From positions 152,210,001 through 152,274,000 of the forward strand of contig OX597816.1 of assembly GCA_951406725.2 (NCBI GenBank): a stretch of DNA of 64,000 bases, in the 5' to 3' direction. Every line of letters begins with the position of its first letter. Position 1 is the stretch's first letter. The notes below the pieces were generated by a model, which made no database searches, was not told the origin of the DNA, and worked only from the letters and a program-made list of their open reading frames with translations. The stretch is from Octopus vulgaris. Taxonomy: Eukaryota. Both the position numbers and the translations under genes were made by a program. Positions 10,923 through 64,000 of this stretch are shown here, in pieces.

Positions 10923-30897
<19,975 letters not shown>

Positions 30898-44008: not shown

Positions 44009-46253
44009 AATATTAATTCAAATTTATTTTTCTAAGCACATTTGTGCTTGATCTCATCAAGAAAGTGCCAAGGAAAATAATTTGGATCTTTCATTAGCAA
44101 TACTTGCACAATTTAAACACATTTATGTGTAAAATTTATTTATGATTTATTTTAAAACTCTTTCTAAAGATGATTATTATGATACTTGAAAAAGGTCTGG
44201 GGGAGGGTACAAAGTGACTAGTAATAGACATAAAGACCAATTTTTAGTACTTTAAATATCTCACCAGTATTTAATAGGATAAAAATTTCAAATGTATTTG
44301 TGTGTACCTCAATAAGAAAAAAATGTACATATTTACCACATCTTTGAATAATAATTTGATGCATTTTCTTTTAAATCTCAGTTCAAACACACACACACAC
44401 ACTATACAATACAAAATCAACTCTACCAGATAACTTCAACCAGCCAATGTATATCTAGTCATTATTAAATATGTTAAAATGCATGATTTGACTAAATGGA
44501 TAATGTTGTTGGATTTTGATTACCAATATATAGATCTGTAAACCTTGGTTAAAAATAAAGGTCACACACAAATATATATATACATAGGAGCAAGTGTCTG
44601 TCTTCTTTTCATTCTTGCATTAAATATGAATTTTAATTTTCAGGAGCAAGAGACAGGAAAGCAGGTATAAATACTTTGAAACACCTGATGTGGTATATTA
44701 TATTCTCTGAAGAGTCCTACTGAAAACATTAGATTATTCTTGAAGGCAATTATCAATTCCACTTTGCAAACTTTGTACATTACTAATAACTTGAATTAAA
44801 AGCTCTAACATTACTCAATATCATTCTTTTTTGGGTATTGTATTTAAAATTATTTTGTTCACATTGAATTCATGCTTTAGGTTTGTTTCTTGTTTCAGTT
44901 CAATGTCCAGGGGAGATGCATGATAGTCGTACCAACCCAGTCCTCAAAACTGCAAGAGTTATGGATGGCAGAGTTAATACCATCCAAAAGTCAGTTATAT
45001 ATGTCCTTATGAAAAGGTATATTGATCATCCTTTCATCAATTTTTGCCAATCCAACACTCCAGTTTTGCTTAACCATTTAGCATTTAATCCAACCATATC
45101 TGGCCCAAATATTCTACCTGTTTCATGTTCAAACTAGCCAGATCCAGCATCTTGCACTGACCCACCAATATCTTTCAAAAATAAATATATATATATATAT
45201 ATATGTATATATTCCTCAGATCAGAAAAAAACTGACTGGTAAGTAAAGACATGTTACTGTAATTTTAGAAAGATATTGGTGGGTCAGTGCAAGATGCTAG
45301 TTTGAATACGAAACAGGTAGAATATATATACATATATATATATATATATAGTTGAAGTTTACAGAAAAACAAAAGACAAAGACAGGTGTATAAACAACAA
45401 GCAGGTGTATTAGTCTGATGCTCAGGAAGGTGAGAAACTCTTTTATGTTTCAAGCCTATGTTCTTCAACAGAAAGGAACACGGGGAAATAAACAGAAAGA
45501 GAATAAAAAAAAATCTTGTGGATTTAGCAGTCAATCATGTCAACTATATATACATATAATAATCTTACTCCTTTTTGATTTACATGAAAAAATACAAAAA
45601 AAGAGGGAGTATAATCAATTGAATTGATTCCAATAAACATACACATATACACAACAATTGGAGTGTTGGACAAATTCCCTACAGCCCCTTGCCAGAGGAA
45701 CTTAAAAGAGTCAATGGCCATTCTGAATATGGGTAGACAGAACTTGTGAGCCTTGGTTAGCAGTCTGTCTAGGAGAAGGAACACTCTGATTTAAAAACTG
45801 GGGTAGATAAGACTCCTTAGTCACAGTGGTGACAACCTGTCCTTGTGTCCAATGGTTCCATTCCTGGGATGAAGGCAAATGAACCATGAATCAGGACTTA
45901 ACCCCAGAGCAATATTCGGATGAAGATATGGGACCAACTGGTGCTCACCTATTTCCTAGTGTAAATCAGAATCATGGTCTCCAACACACAGAAATGTGAA
46001 GGGAACAAGCCCAACTTATGGGTAGCTCTGCAGTCTTGGTAGACTCTCTTGCCAAACCAACTGGAGAAGTGTGAGAAAAGCAAGTATCTGGTGCCTTCAA
46101 ATAACCAGTGCTCTGAGTAGGCTGTACTTGTTAGCCTTGGGTGACAAGCAGCCTAGGAGAAGGAACACTTTGAGTCCAAAACCAAGGGAACAAGAACTCT
46201 GCCACCTTGGCAGGTTGGTAGTAATCTAAAAACACACCTCGTTTGTGAGTGAA

Positions 46254-49200
46254 AATGCTAAGTGAAATAAATGACAATAACGGTGTGAATGGGACTAGAA
46301 CCAATGGTGAAGGTGCAGCACCCAGCAGGTGCCCCACTGTGTAGTAGGGTGGCCCCAGTCATAATCCAGCAACCGCTAGCCATGCTACAAGACATAGGTG
46401 GAGTAAACAAGTAATCACGATGGTTATAGAGTGTTACTACCAGAGCACCCGAGTGGATGCAAATGGCGTTCCTGTCAGAGAGTACAGAAAACAAATGCAC
46501 AGTGAATGGAAGACAATGGAACTGTTCGAATTACTGAACACAGATTATGTGCCCAAGCAAGAGCAATATGAAAGAATGGATGGTTAACAGAATTGGAGCT
46601 AGAAGCTATTAAAAGAAGGATATCAGGTGAGGTTGGGCATGTGAGAAATGAAAGTGGTATAGTGGAAGAGAGTCATGGATGGCAGAGTTAATACCATCCA
46701 AAAGTCAGTTATATATGTCCTTATGAAAAGGTATATTGATCATCCTTTCATCAATTTTTGCCAATCCAACACTCCAGTTTTGCTTAACCCTGCATTTAAT
46801 CCAACCATATCTGGCCCAAATGTTCTACCTGTTTCGTGTTCAAACTAGCCAGATCCAACACCTTACACCAACCCACCAATATCTTTCTAAAATTAAACAT
46901 AGGCATAGGAGTGGCTGTGTGGTAAATACAGAAGGGACAGAATTTATGTGCAACTTTAAAAAGGTTAACCAAAGGAGACTAAATCAAGAGACAAATAAAG
47001 TCAATATTGTATTGAGACACATTGAAACAAAGAACATCACACAAACAAATAATCTTATCAAGGCTGCTAGTAGGACTGTGGCAGAAAGGATGGGATTGAG
47101 AACTACTGAGAATAGAACAGCAATGGATAGAAGAGAAAATAAACAACTGTGGTGAAAAAGGAGAACCTCTGAAGATATAAACTTCTTGAAGAGTGTAGTA
47201 TCAATACTTGTCAGGAAAAGAAATGGAGAACTTAAGAATGAATGGAAATTTTAAAAAGTTAGGAAGAAATATGGTGTAGATATAAAAGGCCAAAATGTTG
47301 TAATTGAAGAACTGAAGCAGTGCATACATGCAAAAAAAGCAAAGCTAACTAGGTTTGAACAACAGATTAAGCAATACCAGCAGAACAAATTATTTAAAAC
47401 CTACCAAAAAAGATTTTATCAAGAGAGATTAATGAGGATAAAAAATGTGAAAGATTAGTCCCTGATGCCGATGAAAGTCGACTTTTTGGGGGTAAGATAT
47501 GGAGTAAGCAAGAACAACATATTACTACAGCTGAATGACTCTGCAGCCTGGAGAAAACAGCTTCTTATCTCCAGCAAGAGGCTATCCACTTCACAGAAGA
47601 CAGTAATGCAAGACTGTAAATGAAGGAGAACAAATCTAGGAATGCTTGGATTGACTATCGCAGAAGTTTATAAGATTCCACATTTGTGGATTGAGTGCTT
47701 AGATCATCATCATCATCGTTGTCGTTTAATGTCCGCTTTCCATGCTAGTATGTGTTGGACGATTTGACTGAGGTCTGGTGAACCAGATGGCTGCACCAGA
47801 CTCCAGTCTGATCTGGCAGAGCTTTTACAGCTGGATGCCCTTCCTAACACCAACCACTCCAAGAGTGTAGTGGGTGCTTTTACGTGCCACTGGCACGAGG
47901 GCCAGTCAGGTAGTACTGGCAACGGCCACACTCAAATGTTGCTTTTTATGTGCCACCTGCACAGAAGCCAATCCAGTGGCACTGGCAACGACCTGTTTGG
48001 AAATAGAAGGAATGTGACATGTTTCCTGAAGAGAAGTATGGTGGGATAGAAAACTGAACTGACATCTTACAGAAAAAGCTTGGGCTCCCTGGGTATCAGA
48101 AGAGGGATTTCCCAGGGTGACAGCCTATCTCCATTGCTTTTTGTTTTCTGCATGATACCCCTGACCTTGGTACTCAGGAAAATGAACCTAGGGTACCAAC
48201 TCAAGGAAAAATCCCAAACAATCAACCACTTCTACTTCTTGGATGATTTGAAACTGTATGGCAAAGATGAGACATAAGTCAGTCCTTTGGTGAACACGGT
48301 CCACAGTTTTAGTACTGATATTAGAATGGAATTTGGACTTAAGAAGTGTGGAGTAATCTACCTAAAAAGAGGCAAGGTACAGTCCCAAGCAAGGATAAAA
48401 TTACCAAATAGAGACTTGATTAAACAAATTGAAATGGTAGGATACAAATACCTTATTGCACTAGAGTGCAATGAGATAATGGAAAAGGAAATGAAAGAGC
48501 AACTGAGGATGGAGTATTCCCGAAGACTGAGGTTGATGTTGCACTCAAAATTGAATGGATGGAATAAAATCCAAGCAGTTAATACATGGGCAATAGCATC
48601 ACTTTGGTATGGAGCAGGAATTATAAAATGGCAAAAGAGAGAAATGAAGAAAATGGATACCAAGACCAGAAAAATGTTTATAGTACATGGAGCTTTCCAC
48701 CCTAAGAGTGACACCGGCAGGCTGTACTTGTCCAGAAGAAAGGGTGGGAGAGGTTTGATCAGATGCCAAGACTGTACTGAGGTAGAGGAAAACAGCCTAG
48801 GGTGGTATATAAAAAATGCTATGGAGCCACTGTTGAAACACACAAAGAAGGCTTGCATCATCAAAACTGAAAATTGTGTAACAAAAGAAAAATTTAAACA
48901 AGAAATGAACAAAAAAAAAAGAAAAAAGCATGGAAGGAAAAAAATGTATGGTTAATTTGCAAGAGATGTGAACACCAAGACAGATACAGAGGACTGGTGG
49001 CTATGGATGAGGAGGAGTGACCTGAAGATAGAGACAGAAGCACTCATAAACGCAGCTCAGGAACAAGTGTTAAGGACCAATTATATGAAGTGCAGAATTG
49101 ACAACACTACAGATAGTAACAAATGCAGAATGTGTAGTGAGAGGGGTGAAATGGTATGGCACATTGTTAGCGAATGCGTGAAATTGGCACAATGTGAATA

Positions 49201-49743
49201 CAAACAACACCATGACAATGTGGCAAGAATGATCCACTGGAAGCTCTGGAAATCACAGACTACAAAGAGCAAAACCCCAGAAGGAGTTACCGAAAATGAG
49301 AACTGCAAAATCCTGTGGGATGTAATGATCCAGTGCAATCATTTGACCAGTCATCAGAAACCAGACACTATTGTGGTGAATAAAAAAGAAAGAACATGTA
49401 TGAAAATCAACATAGCATGCCTTGGTGACGACAGGATCAATGTGAAAGAAGAAGAAAACAAAAAACAACCATGACAATTCAAAGTGGGAAATATGAAGGT
49501 TGTGGTCAATGAAGAGAGCAGACTTGGAAGTATCAGCACTCAACTACCAACCTGGCTGAAAAAGATCGGTGCAAGTCTGAAGGTAGAACACCTACAAAAA
49601 TCAGCATTGCTTGGAACTGCAAGAATTCTTCACAGGGTTCTTGAAGTATGACCAGTAAACAAGTGTCACAGTCTACTGGCTGCGGACAGCTGACACTTTT
49701 CATCATACCCAACAAAATAAGATGTAAGTTTACATATAATAAT
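46254..49743 (+). mobile_element. Older, decayed Dong/R4-like LINE of a different subfamily
   Basis: N-terminal YRKQMH..W..QARAI.KNGWLTELELEAIKR; QGDSLSPLLF; FLDDLKLY; AAQEQ; CRMC; KPDTIVV; ALLGTARIL..VLE*; many stops and frameshifts; short ATAATAAT tail. Confidence 0.85.
47704..47992 (-). mobile_element. (GAT)n-tailed SINE inserted in the old Dong-like LINE
   Basis: Same core and tail; LINE coding sequence resumes on both sides. Confidence 0.8.
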
Positions 49744-51089
49744 AGTTGTTACTTATAGCTACAATGTGTTGAACTGGAATATAAGTGAAGTAAAGAATAT
49801 AGATAGGAAAATATGCAAGCTGCTGAGTTGTAATAAGATGCACCACCCAAAGGCAGACGTAGATCGCCTTTACCTCCCCAGAGCCCAAGGAAGTCGAGGC
49901 CTGATCCAATTTGAACTAGCTTACAAAACAACCACAATTGGACTGGCCAAATATCTTGAAATAACGAATGACTAGATGCTAAAGCTCGTGGAAAATCACG
50001 AGAGACAAAAGAAGCTTCATTCTATCATAGAGGAAAGCAAAAAATTTGCTATTGATCTCGTGCAGGATACCCAAACTGAACAACCCGAGGGAAGTACAGC
50101 AACTATTGTTGCAAAGAAGGTGAAAATAATGGCAACGAAAAAAGCGCACGAGCAATTGGCTGATAGGTGGGAGGAGAAACCGCTGCACAGCAAATATGTG
50201 GCCTGTAACAAACAAGCTGATGTTGACCAGAAGCAAACCCATCAGTGGCTACGGAGCTCAGGGCTAAAAGCAGAGAGCGAAGGTTTCATCCTGGCTGCTC
50301 AAGATCAAAGCCTATTAACCCAGAACTGTGATGAAAAACGGAGCAGACCCAAAATGCCGATTCTGCAACGACATGATTGAAACAGTGGACCACCTAATCT
50401 CTGGATGTAAAGTCTTAGCACCAGTGGAGTATAAATTAAGACATGACAGAGTTGGCCAATATCTACACTGGCTAATAAGTCGGCATTACAATATCAAAAC
50501 TGCCGACAAGTGGTATAATCACCACCCTGAAGCTGTAACTGAAGGAGAAAATGTAACGATTCTGTGGGACTTTCCAGTACATACAGACCAAACCATCAAA
50601 GCCAATAAACTGGATATTGTTGTGAAAGACCAAAACAATAAAGTTTGCTTATTGATCGACATGAGCATCCCGTGATCATAATATCTCGGCGAAAGAGTTT
50701 GATAAGCTCAGAAAATATAAAGACCTGCTCATTGAAATTGAGAAAATGTGGCATCTCAAGGCGGTTACAATACCAGTGATCGTAGGAGCACTAGGAATGA
50801 TCAAAAAGGGAACCGAAAATTATATGAGAATGATCCCTGGCTTACCATCCCTGCAAGAAGTGCAAAAGATTGTCTTAACTGGTACATCACACGTATTGAG
50901 AAGAGCATTGTCGATGTGAGAACTATTACTACCCATGTATTTTAATTTAACTTAAAAAAAAAAAAAACGAACTAGTGAGTTTAGTTTAATGGCCTACCAA
51001 TGTATACTATGAGTTTCTTTGCCCTAGGAGTCGGGAAGACACTCGGCAAGAAATGGAAGCAAATTTGAAAGAAGAAGAAAAAAAAAGAC
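49744..51089 (+). mobile_element. Second, shorter 5'-truncated copy of the same Dong/R4-like LINE (disabled)
   Basis: Near-identical to 60274-61643, with a TGG>TAG stop at about 49973, an 11-nt deletion at about 50327 and a 2-nt deletion at about 50671; (AAT)8 tail. Confidence 0.9.
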
Positions 51090-51245
51090 AATAATAATAA
51101 TAATAATAATAATCAATTCTTTTTTATTGGCCACAAGGGCTGACACGCATGATTACATAAAGGGACAAGACAGGACGAAAGGTTACAAAGGGTTTTGTCC
51201 GTTTGTTAAAAAATCCGTGTAAAAATACATTAACAATAATTATAA

Positions 51246-51720
51246 CTAGCAGTATCGCCCGGCGTTGCTCGGGTTTGTAAGGGAAATAACTATATAAGCA
51301 TTTTTAGAGAGTTATAGCCAAAAAATAGCAAAAAATGCATTAAAAATGGAAAAAATATGATGGTAAATTTTTTTTAAATCGTTGACTCATCGTAGACATT
51401 TTTAGAGAGTTACTTCCCTTATATAATAGCGAAAAAATGCATTAAAATGGAAAAAAAACGATGGTAAATTTTTTTTTAAATCGTAGACTCATGTAGACGC
51501 TTTCTTAGCCATTTCTGTTTTGGTGTCTTCAAGCCATGAAGTCGTTGTTCTAACAGAACACTGGTCTCCTTGACAACGCATTACGACGTTGATTTCCTTA
51601 CACTCCCTTCCCCACAGGTGCAGGTGTGAGCGTGGACGCCAACTCCGCCGCCATCGACACACGAAAAATTATGCATTAAAATGGAATAAAAAATGATGTT
51701 AAATTATTTTTAAAATCGTA
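51246..51720 (-). mobile_element. Inverted copy of the 3' 475 bp of the same Helitron
   Basis: Reverse complement of 52192-52663 with only a few differences; CTAG terminus at 51246-51249. Confidence 0.85.
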
Positions 51721-51729
51721 AATCATACA

Positions 51730-52012
51730 ATCGAAATCCCGAGCCATAAACTACAGCCTAGAAGACGAGCCTCATCCTGAAAGATCTGTAGAACTCGACA
51801 AGGACATCCTGAAAACCCTGGTGGAACAAAATATCATCGTAACTGTTGAGGAACTAGCAGAGAAGCTTGGATTTGGTCATTCAACCATTCATTGACACCT
51901 GTGTGCTATCGGAAAAGTCAGCAAATTGGGTCAATGGGTTCCTCACGAACTTTCCGAGTCTAATTGCATGCAGAGAGTGAATGTATGCTTTTCTTTGCTG
52001 TCATATCTCACC
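51730..52012 (+). pseudogene. Mariner transposase fragment
   Basis: Translates SLEDEPHPERS...TVEELAEKLGFGHSTIH*HLCAIGKVSKLGQWVPHELSE; WVPHEL motif at 51935-51952. Confidence 0.88.
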
Positions 52013-52030
52013 ACTACTGCGCTATGTATA

Positions 52031-52663
52031 TCCATATATATAAAACTGTAGTTGTGTGAGTGTCTGTCCCCTTCGATTTAGATTCCTAACTACTCCCACA
52101 TTTTGTGGTACAGTTTAACCAAATTCGGGTAGCTTATAGTCGTGATTCATATCGAGCCCGTCTGAATATTAGCGCGCGTCTACGATGAGTCTACGATTTT
52201 AAAAATAATTTAACATCATTTTTTATTCCATTTTAATGCATAATTTTTCGTGTCGATGGCGGCGGAGTTGGCGTCCACGCTCACACCTGCACCTGTGGGG
52301 AAGGGAGTGTAAGGAAATCAACGTCGTAATGCGTTGTCAAGGAGACCAGTGTTCTTTTAGAACAACGACTTCATGGCTTGAAGACACCAAAACAGAAATG
52401 GCTAAGAAAGCGTCTACATGAGTCTACGATTTAAAAAAAATTTACCATCGTTTTTTTTCCATTTTAATGCATTTTTTCGCTATTATATAAGGGAAGTAAC
52501 TCTCTAAAAATGTCTACGATGAGTCAACGATTTAAAAAAAATTTACCATCATATTTTTTCCATTTTTAATGCATTTTTTGCTATTTTTTGGCTATAACTC
52601 TCTAAAAATGCTTATATAGTTATTTCCCTTACAAACCCGAGCAACGCCGGGCGATACTGCTAG
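52031..52663 (+). mobile_element. Non-autonomous Helitron
   Basis: A|TC 5' end (TCCATATATATAAAAC); 3' hairpin CCCG-AGCAACGC-CGGG followed by CTAG|T; no TSD. Confidence 0.8.
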
Positions 52664-52814
52664 TAAGAGATAAAACAATGAAAAACTCCCAAAAGGGGGA
52701 GACGTTTCGAAAAGTTCCTGGTGGAAAAACCCTACAAAAGCCAACGGGAGCCTGGTCAAAAAAGGGGTGTAGAGAGTCCCCTTTTTTTTCTCCTTTTGTA
52801 TTACCTTTTTGAAA

Positions 52815-55800
52815 TCACAGGCGAAACCTGAGAACTGGTCCATTTATACAGGCCAGTCTTGCACAATTCACCCACCTTTCATAAAACTTGCTATCGGACA
52901 GCACTTTCCTCTCTAACCTCATTTTCCTTTTCAAGTGAAACTTGAAAAAGTTGATGAGGCCTTGACCAAAGAGGAAAGTGTCTGTCTTTAGCCCTTTCAA
53001 ACGAGTCCACCACACGACCTCTTTCACCACAGCCACTAGGCACAAGAAAACGGCCTCGCCCTCCTTGTTAAAGGAGGTCGGCGGGGCAATCTTCACTATG
53101 GATTCGGCCGATAGTCGGATCCGTCCTACACGTGACAGTAGCTGTTCGACATAAACCCATATTTCAGCAATACTCGGGCACTGAACGAGTGCGTGCAGAA
53201 CGGTTTCGTCGTCCTGGCAACACCTCAGGCAGGCCCGGCTGACGGCACTTCCGTGCCGGTAGAGTTTATCTCGAACAGGCAGAGCCCCTCGGTAGCACTG
53301 CCAGGCGAGAGACCTCTGGAAATTATCCATCAGCCCCGGCCCGAAAGTCCTCCCGAACAGACCGCACAGTTCGTCATCTTCAACGCCTAGAGTTTCCCCG
53401 AGAACGTCGTCGCATTTTTCCTCCACTAACCCTCTATAGAAAGCTAGAGTGGAGCTGTAACCGATCGCATTGCCCGCCTGACGGAGGGCGGAGAGGGCTT
53501 GACGGCACTCGAGGTGCCAAGCGCCCTTTCTCGGTCTACGTTTGATCCAGGTCTGCAGCTCCGTCAAAGAGACGAGCTGCGGAAAATCGCGTCTGACAAA
53601 AGACGACCACACCTGTTCACCGTCTAGGAAGCGCTTGAGATGCCGCAGCCTGAGCGCATGTCTGCGCAACAGCAACCACGGCATTCCAAGGCCTCCGTTC
53701 AGCGGTCGTTGACAGCAGATGGATCGCCTGACCAGTGGCACCTGACCCTTCCACAAAAAGTCAAAGAGCAGGCGTACCAGCTTGGCCAACCAGCGGTCGG
53801 GACAAGGGACGACGGTCAAGCGGTAATAGATAAGATGACGGACGCGATGTACGCATTCGCCACCTCCGCTCGACCTTTCAGGGACAGCTTCCTCTCGGCC
53901 CATTTCTGGGTGAGACGTGCCACCCTGCTCGTCACCTCTTCCCAGTTCTTATCCACCTGGAGGTCCGGACCGAACCAGACCCCGAGCAGTTTAATGGGTC
54001 CGTCTGTCCAGCGCCCTACGACGCTGTTGGACGGCATGGGCTTGCCTCTCCAGGTGCCCAGCTGCAAGCCCACAGACTTTTCCGTGCCCCTGTCACCGCT
54101 TCGTACTGGTTTAGCGTCTCGCCAATCAGGCCAATGTGCCTGTGGCTCGACACCACCACGGTGACGTCGTCGGCATAAGCAGACACGCTGTTTCCGCCTC
54201 CTAGATCGCGCCGGATACCCCTCAAAGCCTCCAACTTGCGCAGTAATGGCTCGAGAGTCAAAATGTACAAGAGGGAGGAGTGAGGGCATCCTTGGCGGAC
54301 CGAACGCGAGATGTCGAACGGTTCCGAAAGGTGACCGTTCACCCGTATCACCGAGCAGATGTTGCTGTATAAAGCAGCGATCCACCCGCGGAAGACTGGA
54401 CTGAAGCCGGCTGCCCTGAGGACAGCTGCCAGGTACCGATGGTCGACCCTATCGAAGGCTTTACTCTGATCCAAGTTGATCAAAGCCCCACCCACGCCAG
54501 CGTCGTTACCCACCCTCTCTATGATGTAGCGCATGAGATGGAGGTTGTCGTGTATTGACCTGGTCGGCACAGCGCATGTCTGCGTCTTGCCGACCAGCTT
54601 GTCCACGACAAGCGCCAATCTCTTGGCTAGCACCTTGGCCAAAATCTTCAACTCTGCATTGAGCAGAGTGATGGGCCGGAAATTCCCTATAACGTTCCCC
54701 TTGTTTGGGTCCTTCTTTAGTAAAGCCACCACCCCTCGACAGACAAAAGCAGGAATTCTCCCGTTTTGCTGCCAGTTGCAGTAGACGTTTGCCAACAGGT
54801 CCGCAAACAAGTCTGACATTGAAAAGTAAAGCTTGTAAGGCAGACAATCCAAACCCGGCGATCTACCTCTCGTGCAACTCTTCATAGCTTCCTGTACTTC
54901 CCAGGCAGATATCGGTCCTTCGCAGCACTCTGCCTCACTGTCCGAGAGTTGTGGTAGGCCGTCCAGGTACACACCAAAGTCTGCACCGTTGTCCGTTCCA
55001 CCGCTCGTCCCAAACAGTTGAGCAAAGTGCCGCTGAAGCACCGTACACATCTGCTTCAGTTGGGTAACCTCGCGCCCGTTCTGGTCCACCAAAGACCGAA
55101 TGGTTGCTCTGTTGCCTCGCTTCGCCTCCGCCACGCGGGCCCATCGAGCGGCTCTAGTCCCCTCCCCGCTTAGCGAACGTGCCTTAGCTCTGACAACGCA
55201 GCCTTCGTGTTTGGCGTCGAAGTGTTGGTCGAGGGCCAACCTTGCCGCCAACACGTCGGTCGCGATGCCAGTGTCAAGAGCCTCGTCTAGTTTCTTAACT
55301 AAATCCCGCTCTCTCTTCCTACGTTCAATAGCTAAAGTCTTACTATACCTAATCGACTCTACTCTAATTGCTCTCTTGAGGGCAAACCACCAGTTGTTGA
55401 CGATTGCCCCCGTGAGCGCCCGCTTAACTAGTAAACTAATCCGGTCTCTGTAAGCTTTGCACGCCGTTAACGACGCGTTCAGCTTCCAGTAGCCGGGTCC
55501 CTGTCTATGTAGCCTATCTAAGTCGACCGTACAGATCACTAATTTGTGGTCCGTATATTCGACTAGGTGGAATTGTGGACACCCTACGCTGTCCTTATCC
55601 GCTGGCCTACAAAACACTCTATCTAAGTACGATCTAGATGACCCGATGCGGTTTGTCCAAGTCCACATTGGCACATTCGGGTTGTCTAGTCGAAACCTGT
55701 CGGACAGCTGAAAGCGGCCGAGTAGGTTGGCGAGGCTCTTGCACCTTCCCCCTCTCCTATCAGACGCTCCCCTGCCCACCCGATCGAAACGTTCGTCTAA

Positions 55801-56238
55801 GACAGTGTTCCAATCCCCAACTAGCACTAGAGTGCGTGACGTTCCCAGGAAAACTTCCAGACGTTTGAAATAATCCGACTGCCCTGCTCCTGTTGGAGCG
55901 TAGGCAGCCAGCAGTCTGAAAGCACCGCCATCACTACCGTCCATGTCGAGGACCACCAACTTACCTTCCGGATCCAAGAAGACTGTCCTTATTTTCAGGT
56001 CCAGGCCCTTCCGAAACAACACCGCAGTACCACCACCGCCCGCTCCCGGCCGACACGGAGATAGAAATATCTCGTATCCGCCGAAAAGGGCTGCGAGTTC
56101 CTGCGGGTCGGAGAGCCTGGTTTCACTGATGGCTGCTACATCCACATCATGAAACCTCAGGTCGTTTAACAGGTGACCCTGTTTCCAAGGTGACCCGAGG
56201 CCTCTCACATTCAAGCAACCGATTCTAAGATTTGCCAT
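52815..56238 (-). pseudogene. Tx1-like ORF2 (APE endonuclease + reverse transcriptase) with two frameshifts
   Basis: LNVRGL, ISET, GDWN, YLDR, TDH (APE); RPITLLN, DQSKAFDRV, VRQGCP, YADD (RT); CLRC..DETVLHALVQC; frame breaks at about 54085 and 53830. Confidence 0.92.
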
Positions 56239-56276
56239 GTTTCAAAAGTTAGGAAAAAAAAAGGAGAAAAAAGGCT

Positions 56277-58079
56277 CTACTTACTGTTGTTGGTGGTGGG
56301 GGTGGCTCCCTTGTGCTTTTGCACGGGTGCTTCCACAATGTTTTTATAAAGTTTCTTCGAGAAACTTTTCCCTAGCGATCCCACATCATTAGGGAATATT
56401 TGTTTGATTTCATCATATGTTTTTGCATTTATTTTTATTGTGAGAATGTGTGCTGGTGGTGTGTTTTGTGTTGGTATGATGAAATCGGTTATATTTGTAC
56501 TAGTTTTGTTTTTTAAGTACTCCACTAGTTTTTGGTTCTTTGTGTTTATTGATGTAATTGTGTCTGTGTGTGTTTGTGTGTGTGGCAGTGGCAGTAGTGG
56601 TGTCGAAAATGTTGTTGTTGTTGTTTGTTGTTGTGAATGTGTGTTGTTGTTGTTGTTGTTGTTGATGTTTGGAAGCACTATTTGTTCGTGCTTCCCCTGT
56701 AAATCTTTTTGTTTTTTCCTCCTTTTCTTCTTTGGAGGCACTATACTCCATTCTCCTTTGTTGGAATCAGAGCTCGCACAATCCGACTCTTCATCCGGCA
56801 AAGGAATGGTTGAGGGGTCTGCTTCAGTAGCAGGACGAAAGGTTTTTGGTTCCGCCGGTATCGGTGGTGCCGCTGCTCCTGTTGCTGTTGATGTTGCTGC
56901 TGTTGACCTTCGAGGTACTGGTGTCGGTGTTGGTTTGGTGGTGGTTGTTGTTGTTGGAGGTGGTGTTGTTCGTCTTGGTGCTGGTGATGGTGTTGGTGGT
57001 GTGGCAGCCTTTGGTGTTTCTTGCTGTTTTTGTTGTTTCTGTTGTTGTTGTTGTTGTTGCTGCCTCTTGCTGAAAGCCTCCATCCTCTTTTTGTGAATGG
57101 GGCAGTCCCTCTTTAAGTGGCTTTCGCTGCTGCAGAGGAAACATTTTGGCTTTCGCCCCTCCACAGCAACGTTTAGCCTGGTGCCGTCCGGCAAACTTAC
57201 GAAATCAGGGACTTTACTGATATTTTCTTGCTGAATTTGCACAAGAAGCAGCACTCCCATCCCCAACCAGTTTTTCGCCCTCACTCTCCTGACATCCAGA
57301 ATGGTGGTAGTGTCCTCTATATCATAGAGGACAGCTGCCACCAGCCATGACATATCTAGCTCAGGGGGGGCGAGGTCGATTTTTATTTTTGTTACTCTTC
57401 GCCCGAGGTGGGTTGGAACTAGTAACAAATTCTCAGTTTGCAAGGGCGAAATGGCGTTCGCCCTTGCAAGCTCCTCTGTTGGGAAGCGAACCTCCACGGT
57501 TCCGAAACGCTTCCCCTTGGTTACGTAGCTCTTTTGGGCCCAAATGGGCTTTAGAGCTATCTCTAACTGTTGGGGTGTGGCATTTGTCATTTTTTTTAGT
57601 TTTCTATCGAAAACTTTGTATATGATTGTTTTCTTGTTTGTGCTTTCAATCACCTCTTGTGGAGTATTGAGGAAGATGCCGTTGCCATCCTTCCTTAACA
57701 ACTCCTTCGCTCTTTTCACATCTTCTAGAGTTATCTTAACTTCCTCCGAAATTTGCTTCGCAGCAGAAGCAAAATTGTTGGAAGTTTTTTCATTTTTCTC
57801 CGTGTCAATGTTTGTAATAATTTTTGTAATTGTTTTTCCTTCCTCCTCCTTCCGTACCAAAGCATTGGGTGAAGGCAGAGGGGGAAAATCGGGAATTACG
57901 TCGAACGCGACGTCCTGGCTTGCATTCTCCTTTCGAACGGAGCGCGTGCTCTCCGGTTCGGAAGGAGGATCTTTGTTGCCTTTTAAGGCGTGAAGTGGGT
58001 GTTTTGGACGAGTTGTGTGTGTTTGCGGAGGGAATGTATCTTGAAGGAAGGAACAGCCAACTGTTCGCTTCATAGCCAT
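56277..58079 (-). CDS. Tx1-like ORF1 (about 600 aa) with CCHC zinc knuckle and Q/T/P-rich linker
   Basis: Open frame from ATG at 58079; CFLCSSESHLKRDC fits CX2CX4HX4C; basic PPKKKRRKK stretch. Confidence 0.85.
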   Translation of the reverse strand: MAMKRTVGCSFLQDTFPPQTHTTRPKHPLHALKGNKDPPSEPESTRSVRKENASQDVAFDVIPDFPPLPSPNALVRKEEEGKTITKIITNIDTEKNEKTSNNFASAAKQISEEVKITLEDVKRAKELLRKDGNGIFLNTPQEVIESTNKKTIIYKVFDRKLKKMTNATPQQLEIALKPIWAQKSYVTKGKRFGTVEVRFPTEELARANAISPLQTENLLLVPTHLGRRVTKIKIDLAPPELDMSWLVAAVLYDIEDTTTILDVRRVRAKNWLGMGVLLLVQIQQENISKVPDFVSLPDGTRLNVAVEGRKPKCFLCSSESHLKRDCPIHKKRMEAFSKRQQQQQQQQKQQKQQETPKAATPPTPSPAPRRTTPPPTTTTTTKPTPTPVPRRSTAATSTATGAAAPPIPAEPKTFRPATEADPSTIPLPDEESDCASSDSNKGEWSIVPPKKKRRKKQKDLQGKHEQIVLPNINNNNNNNTHSQQQTTTTTFSTPLLPLPHTQTHTDTITSINTKNQKLVEYLKNKTSTNITDFIIPTQNTPPAHILTIKINAKTYDEIKQIFPNDVGSLGKSFSKKLYKNIVEAPVQKHKGATPTTNNSK

Positions 58080-58332
58080 GTTTTTTTTTGTAATATTCAA
58101 AATGTTTAAAATGTCAAATGTTCAAAATTTCAAAACGTAATTTCACCCCGAATGGGGCAAAATTTCGCCCAACCGACGAGCTCCGCAAGAAGCCGGTCGG
58201 TTTGGCTACAAAAATATTTAAAAATATCAAAACTTATCAATAGATTTCCAATGAAATTGGTGCCAAATTCACGGAGCCTTTTCAGACACGTCCATCGGCG
58301 TCGGAAGGAATAATAATAATAATAATAATAAT

Positions 58333-58926
58333 AAATGCCCTGATGTAGTACCAGACAGTGGCTCTCATGGCTTCTGATCTTACCTGATTGGAAGTGTTAT
58401 CATGTACATTGTTTTGTCTTGGTATAAAAGATGGGCTACAGCAAATTAACTGCTCAATACCACAGATTTGCTTGTCAGTTGTTTGACCTTAACCAGTTTA
58501 GCATGTCCCTTAGTGGCTGACGATATGTGCATCACTAATCCCGAGTATATGTGGTGGGGGAGCATCATAGCCATGTGTTGAAAGGAATTCTTAGAGGTTT
58601 GGATAATTCACCTTTGGAAACATGGGTGGTTCGTTCAACATCCTTAAGTGATCCTTATTCAGGGACCTTTTGAGTGGGATGGGCTACTCGACCGGAAGAA
58701 AATTCTAACTGGGCCTCACCTGCAAGGTCATGCGCTTTTTATCTTGATATGAGATCACCAAGTCGTGCACATATGACTGTGATGCAAATGTCTGGTGTAC
58801 CCTTGCCAGATGGGTAGTCATGATGGGTATACTGGGGTAAAATATACGAAGCCCAGTATACCCATCATGACTACCCGTATATTTTACCCCAGTGTCACTT
58901 TGATGGCATGCACTGCTCTCTCACTC
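58333..58926 (+). mobile_element. About 590-bp non-coding repeat element flanked by (AAT)n on both sides
   Basis: Homologous copies at 16489-16897 and 40960-41130 on the opposite strand; ends CTCTCTCACTC(AAT)n. Confidence 0.75.
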
Positions 58927-58989
<63 letters not shown>

Positions 58990-59181
58990 AAGAAGAAGAA
59001 GAAGAAGAAGAAGAAGAAGAAGAAGAAGAAGAAGAAGAAGAAGAAGAAGAAGAAGAAGAAGAAGAAGAAGAAGAAGAAGAAGAAGAAGAAGAAGAAGAAG
59101 AAGAAGAAGAAGAAGAAGAAGAAGAAGAAGAAGAAGAAGAAGAAGAAGAAGAAGAAGAAGAAGAAGAAGAAGAAGAAGAAG
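58927..59181 (+). repeat. Compound microsatellite (AAT)11(AAG)74
   Basis: Direct reading; pure repeats. Confidence 0.97.
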
Positions 59182-59182
59182 A

Positions 59183-61643
59183 AAGGCACTCACGAAGGCC
59201 CATAATTGGAAATCCCCCGGTAAAGATAGGGTGCCGAATTTCTGGCTCGCATCACTCCCGTGCGCACACGGTAAGCTAGTTCAGCTGCTCAATGGAATTT
59301 TGAGAGACCCAAAGAAAACACCTGAATGGTTAGCAAGTGGCATTACTTACCTACTCCCAAAGAATAACGAAACCAACCTTCCAAAAAACTATCGGCCTAT
59401 AACCTGTCTATCCACCACGTATAAAATCCTAACATCTATCCTGGCGGAGAAAACATATGCATTCATGGAGAAGAACGATATTTTCCCCATTGAACAAAAA
59501 GGGTGCCGCCGAGGCTCTTACGGATGCAAAGATCAACTGCTAATCAATCGTATGATCCTTGAGAACTGTCACAACAAGCGCAGAAATCTCAGCACCGCAT
59601 GGATTGACTATAAAAAGGCCTTCGACAGTATACCGCATCCATGGATCTTGAGATCGCTGGACATCTTTAAAATTTCCCCTGTGATTTCAAACTTCCTGAA
59701 GCACAATATGTCGTGGAATACGAATCTCCAATTATACCACTCTAATGGAGTACTTGCCTCAGAAAATATAAACATCAACTGTGGAATTTTTCAAGGTGAC
59801 TCACTTTCACCTTTAATATTCTGCATAGCCCCAATACCCCTTACAAGTGAATTAAACAGAACAGGGTATGGGTATAAAATTGCCAATAAAAAAATAAGCC
59901 ATCTATTTTATATGGATGACTTAAAACTTTATGGTAAAGACAATAATGAACTTGAAGGCCTATTGCGCACCGTGAAAGCATTCAGCGATGACATCGGAGT
60001 GGAGTTTGGACTTGAGAAGTGTGCCAAGGCCACTTTCCAGAAAGGGAAAGTGAAGACCACAAATTCAGTCGTGTTAGATGTTGACACAGTCATAAGAGAG
60101 CTTGAGCAAGAACAGACATACAAATATTTAGGGATAAATGAAGGCTCTGGTATTCAGCATGCAAGCATGAAAGAGAAAATCAGGAAGGAATGTTATAGGA
60201 GAGTTCGTGCAGTCCTGAAATCTGAACTAAATGCACGTAACAAGGTGTTAGCTATAAATTCCTTAGCAGTTCCAGTTGTTACTTATAGCTACAATGTGTT
60301 GAACTGGAATATGAGTGAAGTAAAGAATATAGATAGAAAAATACGCAAGCTGCTGAGTTGTAATAGAATGCACCACCCAAAGGCAGACATAGATTGCCTT
60401 TACCTTCCCAGAGCCCAAGGAGGTCGAGGCCTGATCCAATTTGAACTAGCTTACAAAACAACCACAATTGGACTGGCCAAATATCTCGAAATATCGAATG
60501 ACTGGATGCTAAAGCTCGTGGAAAATCACGAGAGACGAAAGAAGCTTCATTCTATCATCAAGGAAAGCAAAAAATTTGCTATTGATCTCGTGCAAGATAC
60601 CCAAACTGAACAACCCGAGGGAAGTACGGCAACTATTGTTGCAAAGAAGGTGAAAATGATGGCAATGAAAAAAGCGCACGAGCAATTGGCTGATAGGTGG
60701 GAGGAGAAACCTCTGCACGGCAAATATGTGACCCGCAGCAAACAAGCTGATGTTGACCAGAAGCAAACCCATCAGTGGCTGCGGAGCTCAGGGCTAAAAG
60801 CAGAGAGCGAAGGTTTCATCCTGGCTGCTCAAGACCAAAGCCTATTAACCCGGAACTACCAGGCCAATGTGATGAAAAATGGAGCAGACCCAAAATGCCG
60901 ATTCTGCAACGACATGATTGAAACAGTGGACCACCTAATCTCTGGATGTAAAGTCTTAGCACCAGTGGAGTATAAATTAAGACATGACAGAGTTGGCCAA
61001 TATCTACACTGGCTAATAAGTCGGCATTACAATATCAAAACTGCCGACAAGTGGTATAATCACCACCCTGAGGCTGTAACTGAAGGAGAAAATGTAACCA
61101 TTTTGTGGGACTTTCCAGTACATACAGACCGAACCATCAAGGCCAATAAACCAGATATTGTTGTGAAAGACCAAAACAATAAAGTTTGCTTATTGATCGA
61201 CATGAGCATCCCCTGTGATCATAATATCTCAGCGAAAGAGTTTGACAAGCTCAGAAAATATAAAGACCTACTCATTGAAATTGAGAAAATGTGGCATCTC
61301 AAGGCGGTTACAATACCAGTGATCGTAGGAGCACTAGGAATGATCAAGAAGGGAACCGAAAATTATATGAGAATGATGCCTGGCTTACCATCCCTGCAAG
61401 AAGTGCAAAAGATTGTCTTAACTGGTACATCACACGTATTGAGAAGAGCATTGTCGATGTGAGAACTGTTGCTGCTCATGTATTTTAATTTAACTTTAAA
61501 AAAAAAAAAAAAAAAAAAAAATGAACGAACTACTGAGTTTGGTTTAATGGCCTACCAATATACACTATGAGTTTCTTTGCCCTAGGAGTCGGGAAGACAC
61601 TCGGCAAGAAATGGAAGAAAATTTGAAAGAAGAAAAAAAAAAG
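59183..61643 (+). mobile_element. Dong/R4-clade RLE LINE, 5'-truncated with the remaining ORF intact and an (AAT)n tail
   Basis: NWKSPGKD, YRPITCL, DYKKAFDS, QGDSLSP, YMDD; CRFC..ETVDHLISGC; RHD; PDIVV..IDMSIP..KYKDL restriction-like endonuclease; tail at 61645-61662. Confidence 0.9.
59231..61462 (+). CDS. RT - CCHC - RLE polyprotein (N-terminally truncated) of the Dong/R4-like LINE
   Basis: 743-codon stop-free frame that stays open upstream to the truncation point; no ATG start. Confidence 0.85.
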   Translation: MPNFWLASLPCAHGKLVQLLNGILRDPKKTPEWLASGITYLLPKNNETNLPKNYRPITCLSTTYKILTSILAEKTYAFMEKNDIFPIEQKGCRRGSYGCKDQLLINRMILENCHNKRRNLSTAWIDYKKAFDSIPHPWILRSLDIFKISPVISNFLKHNMSWNTNLQLYHSNGVLASENININCGIFQGDSLSPLIFCIAPIPLTSELNRTGYGYKIANKKISHLFYMDDLKLYGKDNNELEGLLRTVKAFSDDIGVEFGLEKCAKATFQKGKVKTTNSVVLDVDTVIRELEQEQTYKYLGINEGSGIQHASMKEKIRKECYRRVRAVLKSELNARNKVLAINSLAVPVVTYSYNVLNWNMSEVKNIDRKIRKLLSCNRMHHPKADIDCLYLPRAQGGRGLIQFELAYKTTTIGLAKYLEISNDWMLKLVENHERRKKLHSIIKESKKFAIDLVQDTQTEQPEGSTATIVAKKVKMMAMKKAHEQLADRWEEKPLHGKYVTRSKQADVDQKQTHQWLRSSGLKAESEGFILAAQDQSLLTRNYQANVMKNGADPKCRFCNDMIETVDHLISGCKVLAPVEYKLRHDRVGQYLHWLISRHYNIKTADKWYNHHPEAVTEGENVTILWDFPVHTDRTIKANKPDIVVKDQNNKVCLLIDMSIPCDHNISAKEFDKLRKYKDLLIEIEKMWHLKAVTIPVIVGALGMIKKGTENYMRMMPGLPSLQEVQKIVLTGTSHVLRRALSM

Positions 61644-62232
61644 TAATAATAATAATAATAATCCAGTGGTTCTTATTATCAGTCAATTCTCTTTATTTCT
61701 TGAATAAGCCAATGACAGATACAAGATATTACAGAGGAAATTATGACACTATTCTGAATATTCTTGTCTAAGGCTTAAAATTTATGTGCATGAAATTTAC
61801 TGAAAGTTTATAAATTTATAAACCTACCAACCAAACTAATGACATGGATTACTTTGCAATTATTCTTAGTAAACTACATATATTCACTCTTATATTTTGT
61901 GGTAATTCACGATGCTAAGGATGGGGACCTACTTCAATAATGATGATCCTTGTGCATTTTATCAAGTCTTACCTGAATGAGAAAATATCTTTCCCTCATA
62001 AAAGTGAATATGGACCATAAAACTTGACAGAAGACAAGGGATTGAACTTGTGTTTTGTTCCTTTTCCAGAACAAATACTAGGATTTGATGCTTGCAAGAG
62101 TAAAAATAACTCATTCCTTCTTTTAAATCTATATTTATCTCAATAGTTTTATTGATATAGTATAGTTTCATATTATTGTACATGTGTCCCCTCCCCGACT
62201 TTTTTTCTTTGGAATTGTAAATACCAAATACC

Positions 62233-62466
62233 TATTTCTTTACTACCCACAAGGGGCTAAACATGGGGGAGAAAAACAAGGACAGAAAAACGGATTAAGT
62301 CAATTACATTGACTCCAGTGCATAACTGGTACTTAATTCATCGACCCCGAAAGGATGAAAGGCAAAGTCAACCTTGGCAGAATTTGAACTCAGAATGTAA
62401 CGGCAGACGAAATACGGCTACGCATTTCGCCCGGCGTGCTAACATTTCTGCCAGCTCGCCGCCTTC
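62233..62466 (-). mobile_element. Young tRNA-derived SINE with a Meta-like core and Tx1-like tail
   Basis: Head GGCGGCGAGCTGGCAGAA, B box GAGTTCAAAT, core GCCTTTCATCCTTTCGGGGTCGAT..AGTACCAG; CpGs retained. Confidence 0.8.
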
Positions 62467-63097: not shown

Positions 63098-63260
63098 TCA
63101 CTTCATTTTGTTTATACGAAGCAATGTTATGTATGCAATAACCAAAGAGACTATAATCATAAAGAAGAAACCAAGAAGATTATTCCAGAGATCCCATGGT
63201 TCACTGTACTCAATACTCTGCTCTTCAAGGTAGTCATTGCCTCTTATGACACTTACATTA
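63098..63260 (-). CDS. ABCG2: ABCG2-like half-transporter, terminal exon (NVSVIRGNDYLEEQSIEYSEPWDLWNNLLGFFFMIIVSLVIAYITLLRINKMK*)
   Basis: tttcag acceptor; matches the ABCG2 C-terminal pattern G..YL..Q.I...PW.LW.N...IAY..L; phase fits the upstream exon. Confidence 0.85.
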
Positions 63261-63816: not shown

Positions 63817-63881
63817 CAATTTTTGACTCCTTGGATAATGGGACAGAAGGTCATGCCCTTTAGTTCATTGATTGATAGTAG
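63817..63881 (-). CDS. ABCG2: ABCG2-like penultimate exon (LLSINELKGMTFCPIIQGVKNC)
   Basis: catttcag acceptor, gtaagt donor, 65 nt; NE..G..FCP extracellular-loop motif of ABCG2. Confidence 0.85.
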
Positions 63882-64000
63882 CTGAAATGATAAATGACGA
63901 GTTGTCGAAATATGTAGCAGAAAGGATTATGGTCAAACAAGAGATAATTTGAATGATGGATAACTGGGCTGTTGCCATTTGTAGAATTGAGGCATTGTTT

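Follow-up and report, generated by a model that had tools for sequence, protein, structure and literature searches.

A chain of retroelements from four families joined by AAT runs in the genome of Octopus vulgaris

We analysed a 64,000-nucleotide stretch of the Octopus vulgaris genome (contig OX597816.1 of assembly GCA_951406725.2, positions 152,210,001 to 152,274,000 of the forward strand; hereafter the window), in which five retroelement copies from four families form a pile with AAT runs between them. Read along the plus strand, the chain passes from an old Dong-like long interspersed nuclear element (LINE) through a young Dong-like copy (copy A), an antisense Tx1 LINE and a 592-bp element to a second young Dong-like copy (copy B). 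Runs of AAT or ATT precede the 5' ends of all four families far more often than expected by chance, and we consider it highly probable (roughly 85%) that the chain was built up by target-primed insertions, one after another, into the AAT tails of earlier elements.

The old Dong-like LINE (45693..49735, plus strand), of the type with a restriction-like endonuclease (RLE), is 5'-truncated, contains numerous stop codons and frameshifts and has lost approximately 390 nt near 47604. It is followed on the same strand by ATAATAATA (49736..49744), a remnant of its AAT tail together with the 5' junction of copy A, which is itself a 5'-truncated fragment of 1.35 kb (49744..51089, plus). Copy A ends in an (AAT)8 run (51090..51113, plus) that doubles as the (ATT)n tail of the full-length Tx1-clade LINE on the minus strand (51114..58308). 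This Tx1 LINE carries open reading frame (ORF) 1 at 56280-58079 and, at 52818-56238, an ORF2 with apurinic/apyrimidinic endonuclease (APE), reverse transcriptase (RT) and zinc finger domains and a frameshift near 54000. Its 5' end is separated from the 592-bp element by (AAT)8.7 (58309..58334, plus), and the runs at 51090-51113 and 58309-58334 are likely to represent the target duplication of the Tx1 insertion. The 592-bp element, a non-coding retroposon with a fixed 5' end and an AAT tail (58335..58926, plus), leads into (AAT)11.7 (58927-58961) and then (AAG)74.7 (58960-59183), again on the plus strand, and the AAG run meets copy B via AAGAA, which copy B itself also reads at its truncation point. 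Copy B (59184..61643, plus) is 5'-truncated at the start of the RT and retains RT, CCHC and PD-(D/E)xK motifs; its tail, (TAA)6.3 (61644..61662, plus), marks the right edge of the pile.

The window contains 14 plus-strand AAT runs of at least 8 nt, and all four that exceed 10 nt fall inside this block. At the first junction the AAT extends to only 8-9 nt, a length present at 10 positions on the plus strand of the window; the junction was counted because it lies at the usual tail position of the old Dong family. An initial annotation of this DNA had given the same order of elements and runs, which stands, although the old LINE begins at about 45693 and not at 46254.

Runs of AAT and ATT at 5' junctions

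A run was scored at a 5' junction where 15 nt with no more than two mismatches to the repeat ended within 6 nt of the junction. In a background sample of 40 evenly chosen 10-kb stretches, 1597 of 265,920 positions passed (0.6%), and AT-rich sites reached 4.1%. The copies in the window were left out of all counts, and L138 was dropped as the same copy as L069. Among young Dong-like copies 68 of 79 had a 5' run, and within 75 nt the figure was 75 of 77 against a background of 1.3% (L354 and L366, both AAT by eye, were set aside in this count); by eye L069 alone has no run. These runs are not encoded by the element, because young Dong copies are truncated at dozens of different points. All 27 full-length Tx1 5' ends follow ATT, 25 of them in one register, ending exactly ATTATT. 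Since full-length ends could carry a run with them, truncated Tx1 copies were also tested, with L385 unmatched, five edge rows dropped and 15 further Tx1 copies outside the counts. Eight of 17 rows passed; removal of one full-length copy and two internal rearrangements leaves 8 of 14 true truncations, and three more of the 14 have 3-4 units. The 592-bp element showed 5' runs in 26 of 29 copies, the other three being preceded by pieces of the element itself, and in 7 of 8 copies from unselected DNA. For the old Dong family the count was 12 of 29, against a background of 0.7% for that test, rising to 15 of 29 within 45 nt. Enrichment over random positions is thus approximately 60- to 160-fold across the four families. 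The initial annotation had proposed enrichment of AAT/ATT in 5' flanks as its check and a lack of enrichment as its refutation; enrichment is what was found.

Two control families behave differently. A GAT-tailed short interspersed nuclear element (SINE) has its tail in 14 of 20 copies and a 5' run in none of the 20, and copies of a Helitron family adjoin (TA)n in 12 of 19 cases, or one another, and AAT in none of the 19. An ATT-tailed tRNA-type SINE was considered as a further targeted family and rejected, as the association was weak (3 of 30 aligned 5' ends, judged against imperfect reference ends). A strand rule is apparent, in that Tx1 copies lie on ATT only and Dong copies on AAT with a single mixed exception. 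In L358, L354 and L070 the array changes from AAT to ATT beside a Dong 5' junction, and in L358 the ATT part adjoins the element. We also noted a tRNA-headed SINE that carries within it an AAT array where insertions of young Dong and Tx1 copies are found (L071, L075, L366).

Both endonuclease types expected from these families are present. The young Dong-like family encodes a single ORF of 1005 aa (copy L072) with YMDD at 489, CCHC at 818, PD..D at 903 and KY at 938. Against Pfam this protein matches RVT_1 only, with no Exo_endo_phos (APE) domain, and its closest solved structures are R2 proteins. The minus-strand LINE encodes an ORF1 with a CCHC knuckle (a weak match, E 0.08) and an ORF2 with APE, RT and a zinc finger. 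Residues 1-800 of this ORF2 score 266 bits to YTX2_XENLA versus 172 bits to human L1 ORF2p, and its RT is 35% identical to Xenopus Tx1L. In an RT tree, whose deep forks are open and which contains no L1 row, the element shares a branch of its own with unnamed proteins and one from Argonauta (71% identical). The proposal that at least four families with two endonuclease types, RLE and APE, share one target is supported by enrichment in all four and by the presence of both enzymes. The accompanying description of the pile members as unrelated holds only in part, since two of the four families are Dong-like, the old and young families sharing 32% identity across their C-terminal halves. At least four further Dong-like families, recognised as flank clusters, have 3' ends that run into AAT.

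Such piles are frequent in the genome. Arrays of at least five perfect AAT units number 58 in the 400 kb sampled, or about one per 7 kb, which corresponds to approximately 400,000 arrays per genome if the sample is representative. Of 64 sampled arrays 39 adjoin a recurrent element end, which underestimates the true number, as truncated 5' ends fail to form clusters. Piles, taken as at least three same-strand arrays with at least two recurrent ends, were found by reading in 9 of the 40 10-kb stretches. Neighbour pairs of the window pile recur elsewhere in the genome, Tx1 copies often lie head to tail with 4-11 ATT units between them (L013, L014, L018, L020, L207, L213), and 13 arrays have a Tx1 end on both sides. 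The window pile is long but ordinary in kind, and the earlier idea of a special landing pad at this locus is not borne out.

Growth of the pile and alternative explanations

In target-primed reverse transcription a nicked DNA strand primes on the tail of the element RNA. The strand nicked by the Dong RLE would be ATT, with priming on an (AAU)n tail, and that nicked by the AP-type endonuclease of Tx1 would be AAT, with priming on an (AUU)n tail. An insertion leaves a tail behind, at times duplicates part of the array, as a few copies show, and at times re-copies short 5' stretches, such that one array becomes two; the re-copied stretches are seen in the sequence, and their cause is presumed. 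Tails of AAT or ATT were present in 37 of 37 young Dong, 29 of 29 592-bp and 27 of 28 Tx1 copies scored. Short duplications of the first bases of the element itself were found at the 5' junctions of L129, L349, L362, L103 and L106, similar to those reported for R2 (PMC3774820). The 5' arrays of young Dong copies exceed their 3' arrays (median 24 versus 15 units, p 0.001), which is not the case for Tx1 arrays.

For a few copies it can be seen that the target pre-existed, because variant repeat units are duplicated there. In L063/L181 (G000:C12, ~88.263-88.268 Mb) nine variant units are repeated in order on both sides over ~80-110 nt (p 0.0002), and the Tx1 copy L200 repeats ATC(ATT)n. A variant-chain score of at least 3 was obtained for 6 of 79 young Dong copies versus 0.8 expected from mismatched pairs. 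For the remaining copies we infer that an array probably preceded the insertion. As an observation in its own right, an apparent target duplication of ~80-110 nt within an array, as in L063/L181, is long for a LINE.

The members of the pile differ widely in identity to their families. The series runs from the old Dong LINE at ~80% (80-84% to other copies of its family) through the 592-bp element (median 91.5% to other copies), copy A (median 94.6% to 29 other copies), the Tx1 ORF2 (median 97.5% to other copies) and copy B (median 99.0% to 29 other copies) to a Helitron-like insert (median 99.4% to 19 other copies). Judged from these values, the insertion order was likely the old Dong LINE, the 592-bp element, copy A, Tx1, and then the Helitron and copy B. 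A sequential pile is indicated and a single event ruled out, because the divergences differ and the order fits the geometry.

The alternative that survives best, although we regard it as improbable, is that the elements are one-step chimeras, whose 5' runs were made by RT jumping to the AAU tail of another RNA or stuttering, with no targeting of arrays. The stuttered 5' junctions listed above are expected under this explanation, as are the greater length of 5' arrays and their higher purity close to the junction (5-11% variant units versus 16% in background arrays), and R2 enzymes are known to add extra letters and to join by microhomology (PMC3774820). Against it, pile members span 80% to 99% family identity, and Tx1 and Dong occupy the same runs in opposite orientations. 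Some insertions are also flanked by duplicated variant units, and what lies beyond many 5' runs is unique DNA or TA or ATC repeats and not the tail of another element. Jumping or stuttering may add to the runs and cannot explain all of them.

Still less probable is passive accumulation in AT-rich or nicked harmless DNA, with the AAT runs expanded later by slippage. The genome is rich in microsatellites, the ATT-tailed SINE is only weakly associated with runs (3 of 30) and old Dong runs occur in under half of the copies, all of which such a process could accommodate. It is contradicted by copies that, at less than 1% divergence, already carry long runs precisely at their 5' junctions, by the low rate at AT-rich sites (just 4.1%), by the single register of Tx1 joins (25 of 27) and by the two control families, neither of which shows 5' runs. 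Least probable of all is an assembly artefact in which repeats were stitched together at microsatellites: all five copies are high-copy and joined at simple repeats, and the array is where contigs of other runs end. Against this, divergence is specific to each copy, the ends are those typical of the families, copies A and B are 94% identical to each other (a 6% difference), and comparable piles were found in 9 of the 40 stretches sampled.

Several observations weigh against repeated insertion into earlier AAT tails. The family samples are the best-scoring 30-40 matches per search and not a random draw, the left junction of the old LINE (~45693) has no AAT run, and even within 45 nt a run is missing from 3 of the 14 true truncated Tx1 junctions and from 14 of the 29 in the old Dong family. 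L063 had already been seen when the variant-chain test was devised. An exact-match duplication test gave 5 of 37 young Dong copies (null 2.9, P 0.11, not significant), 0 of 29 592-bp copies and 1 of 18 Tx1 copies. The strands nicked by the Dong and Tx1 enzymes are read from orientation only. The last 70 nt of the 592-bp element did not score above shuffles against 11 recurrent AAT-adjacent ends when a 3' end common with a partner LINE was sought. AAG, a repeat considered below as a product of 5' stuttering, follows 3' tails in 4 of 79 young Dong copies. Finally, no empty allele was seen in public runs, in which right-flank contigs (three runs) end 32-40 letters into the repeat and the old/young junction is swamped by other copies; these runs are uninformative about the presence or absence of such an allele. 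The notion that each insertion renews the site, put forward in the initial annotation, gains from the tails in nearly all copies and from the few duplicated variant units and stuttered junctions, and is held back by this failure to see an empty allele.

The AAG run before copy B is one of three such junctions, (AAT)n(AAG)n being found at the 5' end of 2 of 79 other young Dong copies. At two of these breaks the sequence of the element itself is AAGAA or GAAGAA (chance 1.6% per site), and the third is a full-length end. We lean towards seeding of (AAG)74 by stutter at the 5' junction of copy B in preference to microhomology with an older AAG run; the run would then have been lengthened by slippage.

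The 592-bp element is a longer version of a family unit of 556 nt, and in this copy a 36-nt fold-back duplication lies inside 58812-58876. The family is non-coding, with a fixed 5' end, 5' truncations and a simple-repeat tail. No RNA-gene head (tRNA, 5S, 7SL or snRNA) was matched in Rfam at the gathering score, and at E<=10 only weak hairpin-type matches appeared; a scan of the window likewise gave no Rfam matches beyond this weak hairpin type. Targeting by the element in its own right is unsupported. It is likely to ride on the Dong enzyme, because it encodes nothing and shares with Dong its orientation, tail and stuttered 5' junctions.

Comparison with known targeted retroelements

Insertion of Dong elements into TAA repeats has been described for silkworm (Bombyx mori Dong), mosquito (DongAg) and snail (DongBg) (PMC3812793), and our counts (68 of 79 young and 12 of 29 old copies with AAT 5' runs) conform to this, as the initial annotation had assumed. 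Dong is placed in the R4 lineage (PMC3774820), and R4 has an RLE (PMC4640811), although the review PMC3812793 puts Dong among the APE elements. The octopus elements resemble Dong/R4 in their single ORF with RT, CCHC and PD-(D/E)xK motifs and in their insertion at TAA/AAT, and a mollusc member is already known. They go beyond published Dong elements in that at least two families were tested here, AAT also follows four more Dong-like 3' ends, and one copy has a duplication of ~80-110 nt. Dong-R4 elements are abundant and recently active in octopus, where L1-Tx1 elements are also recently active (PMC13282606, PMC8967140); the portions of these reports available to us do not describe the target sites.

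An HDV-like ribozyme has been reported at the 5' end of Dong/R4 elements (PMC3774820). No ribozyme was matched when one old 5' region and two full-length young copies were scanned against Rfam by E-value; Rfam may miss such folds. Full-length young Dong copies (L085, L334, L359, L369) are ~5.5 kb long, with a 1.3-kb 5' untranslated region (UTR) that contains an internal tandem duplication. Their first 100 nt are hairpin-rich and are preceded by variable purine-rich letters.

Microsatellite targets of Tx1 elements include (TC)n for Kibi, (TTC)n for Koshi and (TTCC)n/(TTTC)n for crocodilian Tx1 (PMC4494074). The element in the window resembles Kibi and Koshi in having two ORFs, an ORF2 with APE, RT and zinc finger, and a single microsatellite target entered in one orientation and a fixed register. 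In contrast to them, its target is (ATT)n and not of the TC type, RLE elements occupy that target on the opposite strand, and the element falls on a separate branch; membership of the Kibi/Koshi lineage was rejected on the (ATT)n target. The piling of families and their passengers at one target recalls the Tx1-Mar and SINEU clusters in Mariner-N4 (PMC4494074), which, as described there, involve one enzyme type and a transposon target, whereas two enzyme types and a target regenerated with each insertion are found here. There is also a likeness to the insertion of L1 and Alu into poly(A) tails, in which simple repeats arising from tails are used again by later elements (PMC3812793), although the L1 preference is weak and that of the young families here is near-strict. 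Our literature search found no ATT-targeting Tx1 and no shared AAT piles in octopus; Repbase and Kojima and Fujiwara 2004 lay outside that search, and a target of this kind may be listed there. While insertion of Dong into TAA is known, what is new within the scope of that search is a Tx1 family directed at ATT, together with the probable use of one self-regenerating target by two enzymes on two strands.

More tentatively, the several hundred thousand AAT arrays of this genome may form a self-amplifying niche to whose construction half a dozen RLE LINE families, an APE Tx1 that converged on this repeat from the opposite strand, and their passengers all contribute, and in which Dong duplicates up to ~100 bp of array and writes new repeat at 5' junctions, including new motifs such as (AAG)n. 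If this is true, retrotransposition would be a main source of the trinucleotide microsatellites of the genome, and two enzymes for programmable insertion at one harmless target would be at hand. The results suggest that much of the AAT microsatellite load and the clustering of transposable elements in octopus-like genomes is due to targeting, with a bearing on assembly and marker design in such genomes. They add (ATT)n to the targets of Tx1 and provide a natural RLE/APE pair reading the same repeat on opposite strands, on which the evolution of target choice could be tested. They also bear on claims of active Dong-R4 in octopus brain, in that landing sites would be predictable and mostly harmless.

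Other inserts and the neighbourhood of the pile

The initial annotation stated that every junction of the block is an AAT run, which fails at the left end and at three kinds of insert within the pile: a SINE, a 233-bp copy and Helitron sequences. In the old LINE, a (GAT)n-tailed SINE (47703..47992, minus), which we take to be of RTE type, has flanks that are contiguous in other copies of the old LINE; its family is the GAT-tailed control described above. A 233-bp insert in the same LINE (46669..46901, plus) is a 94% copy of 44955-45189 with non-AAT junctions. A local fold-back at 45109-45325 lies in the same neighbouring DNA (44955-45325), and the fold-back and the local copy together suggest templated repair.

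The Tx1 copy is interrupted by a young, non-autonomous Helitron-like element (51733..52663, plus), which is 5'-truncated, ends in a hairpin and then CTAG, and contains a mariner-like transposase fragment; the Helitron and mariner labels are presumptive, assigned from motifs. Helitrons have a subterminal hairpin and a CTAG 3' end before T, and produce no target duplication. An inverted partial copy of the 3' end of this element (51245..51720, minus; 476 bp, 99%) lies beside it within the Tx1 3' UTR, so that the Helitron and its own inverted 3' 476 bp give two outward-facing CTAG ends at 51245-52664. The whole segment (51245-52664) is absent from 29 of 29 other Tx1 copies, and 19 of 19 other copies of the Helitron family end CTAG-T. 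An interpretation of 51245-52664 as a miniature inverted-repeat transposable element with 476-bp inverted ends was rejected, as other copies have one such end and extend further 5'.

The pile sits between convergent PTDSS and ABCG-type genes. Phosphatidylserine synthase (PSS) exons lie to its left (17972..25272, plus), with further likely exons at 27300-27393 and 29004-29060; a terminal PTDSS exon was looked for and not located. To its right are the last two coding exons of an ABCG-type transporter (63817-63882 and ~63100-63260, minus; read by eye), with ABC2_membrane exons just right of the window. The searches show an ABCG-type membrane domain only, and the name ABCG2 is presumptive, from similarity. 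The initial placement of the block between PTDSS1 and ABCG2 is therefore supported as to its flanking PSS and ABCG-type exons, and its intergenic position is only likely, given the missing terminal exon. The single locus shows no sign of function. A second phosphatidylserine synthase gene was noted at G000:C29:5.78-5.80 Mb.

Just beyond the right edge of the pile, a very abundant tRNA-type SINE (62226-62465, minus) has a 3' tail resembling the Tx1 3' UTR (51114-51200), with a local score of 30 versus 19 for shuffled sequence (p 0.012). It is possible from this resemblance that Tx1-clade LINEs may mobilise the SINE.

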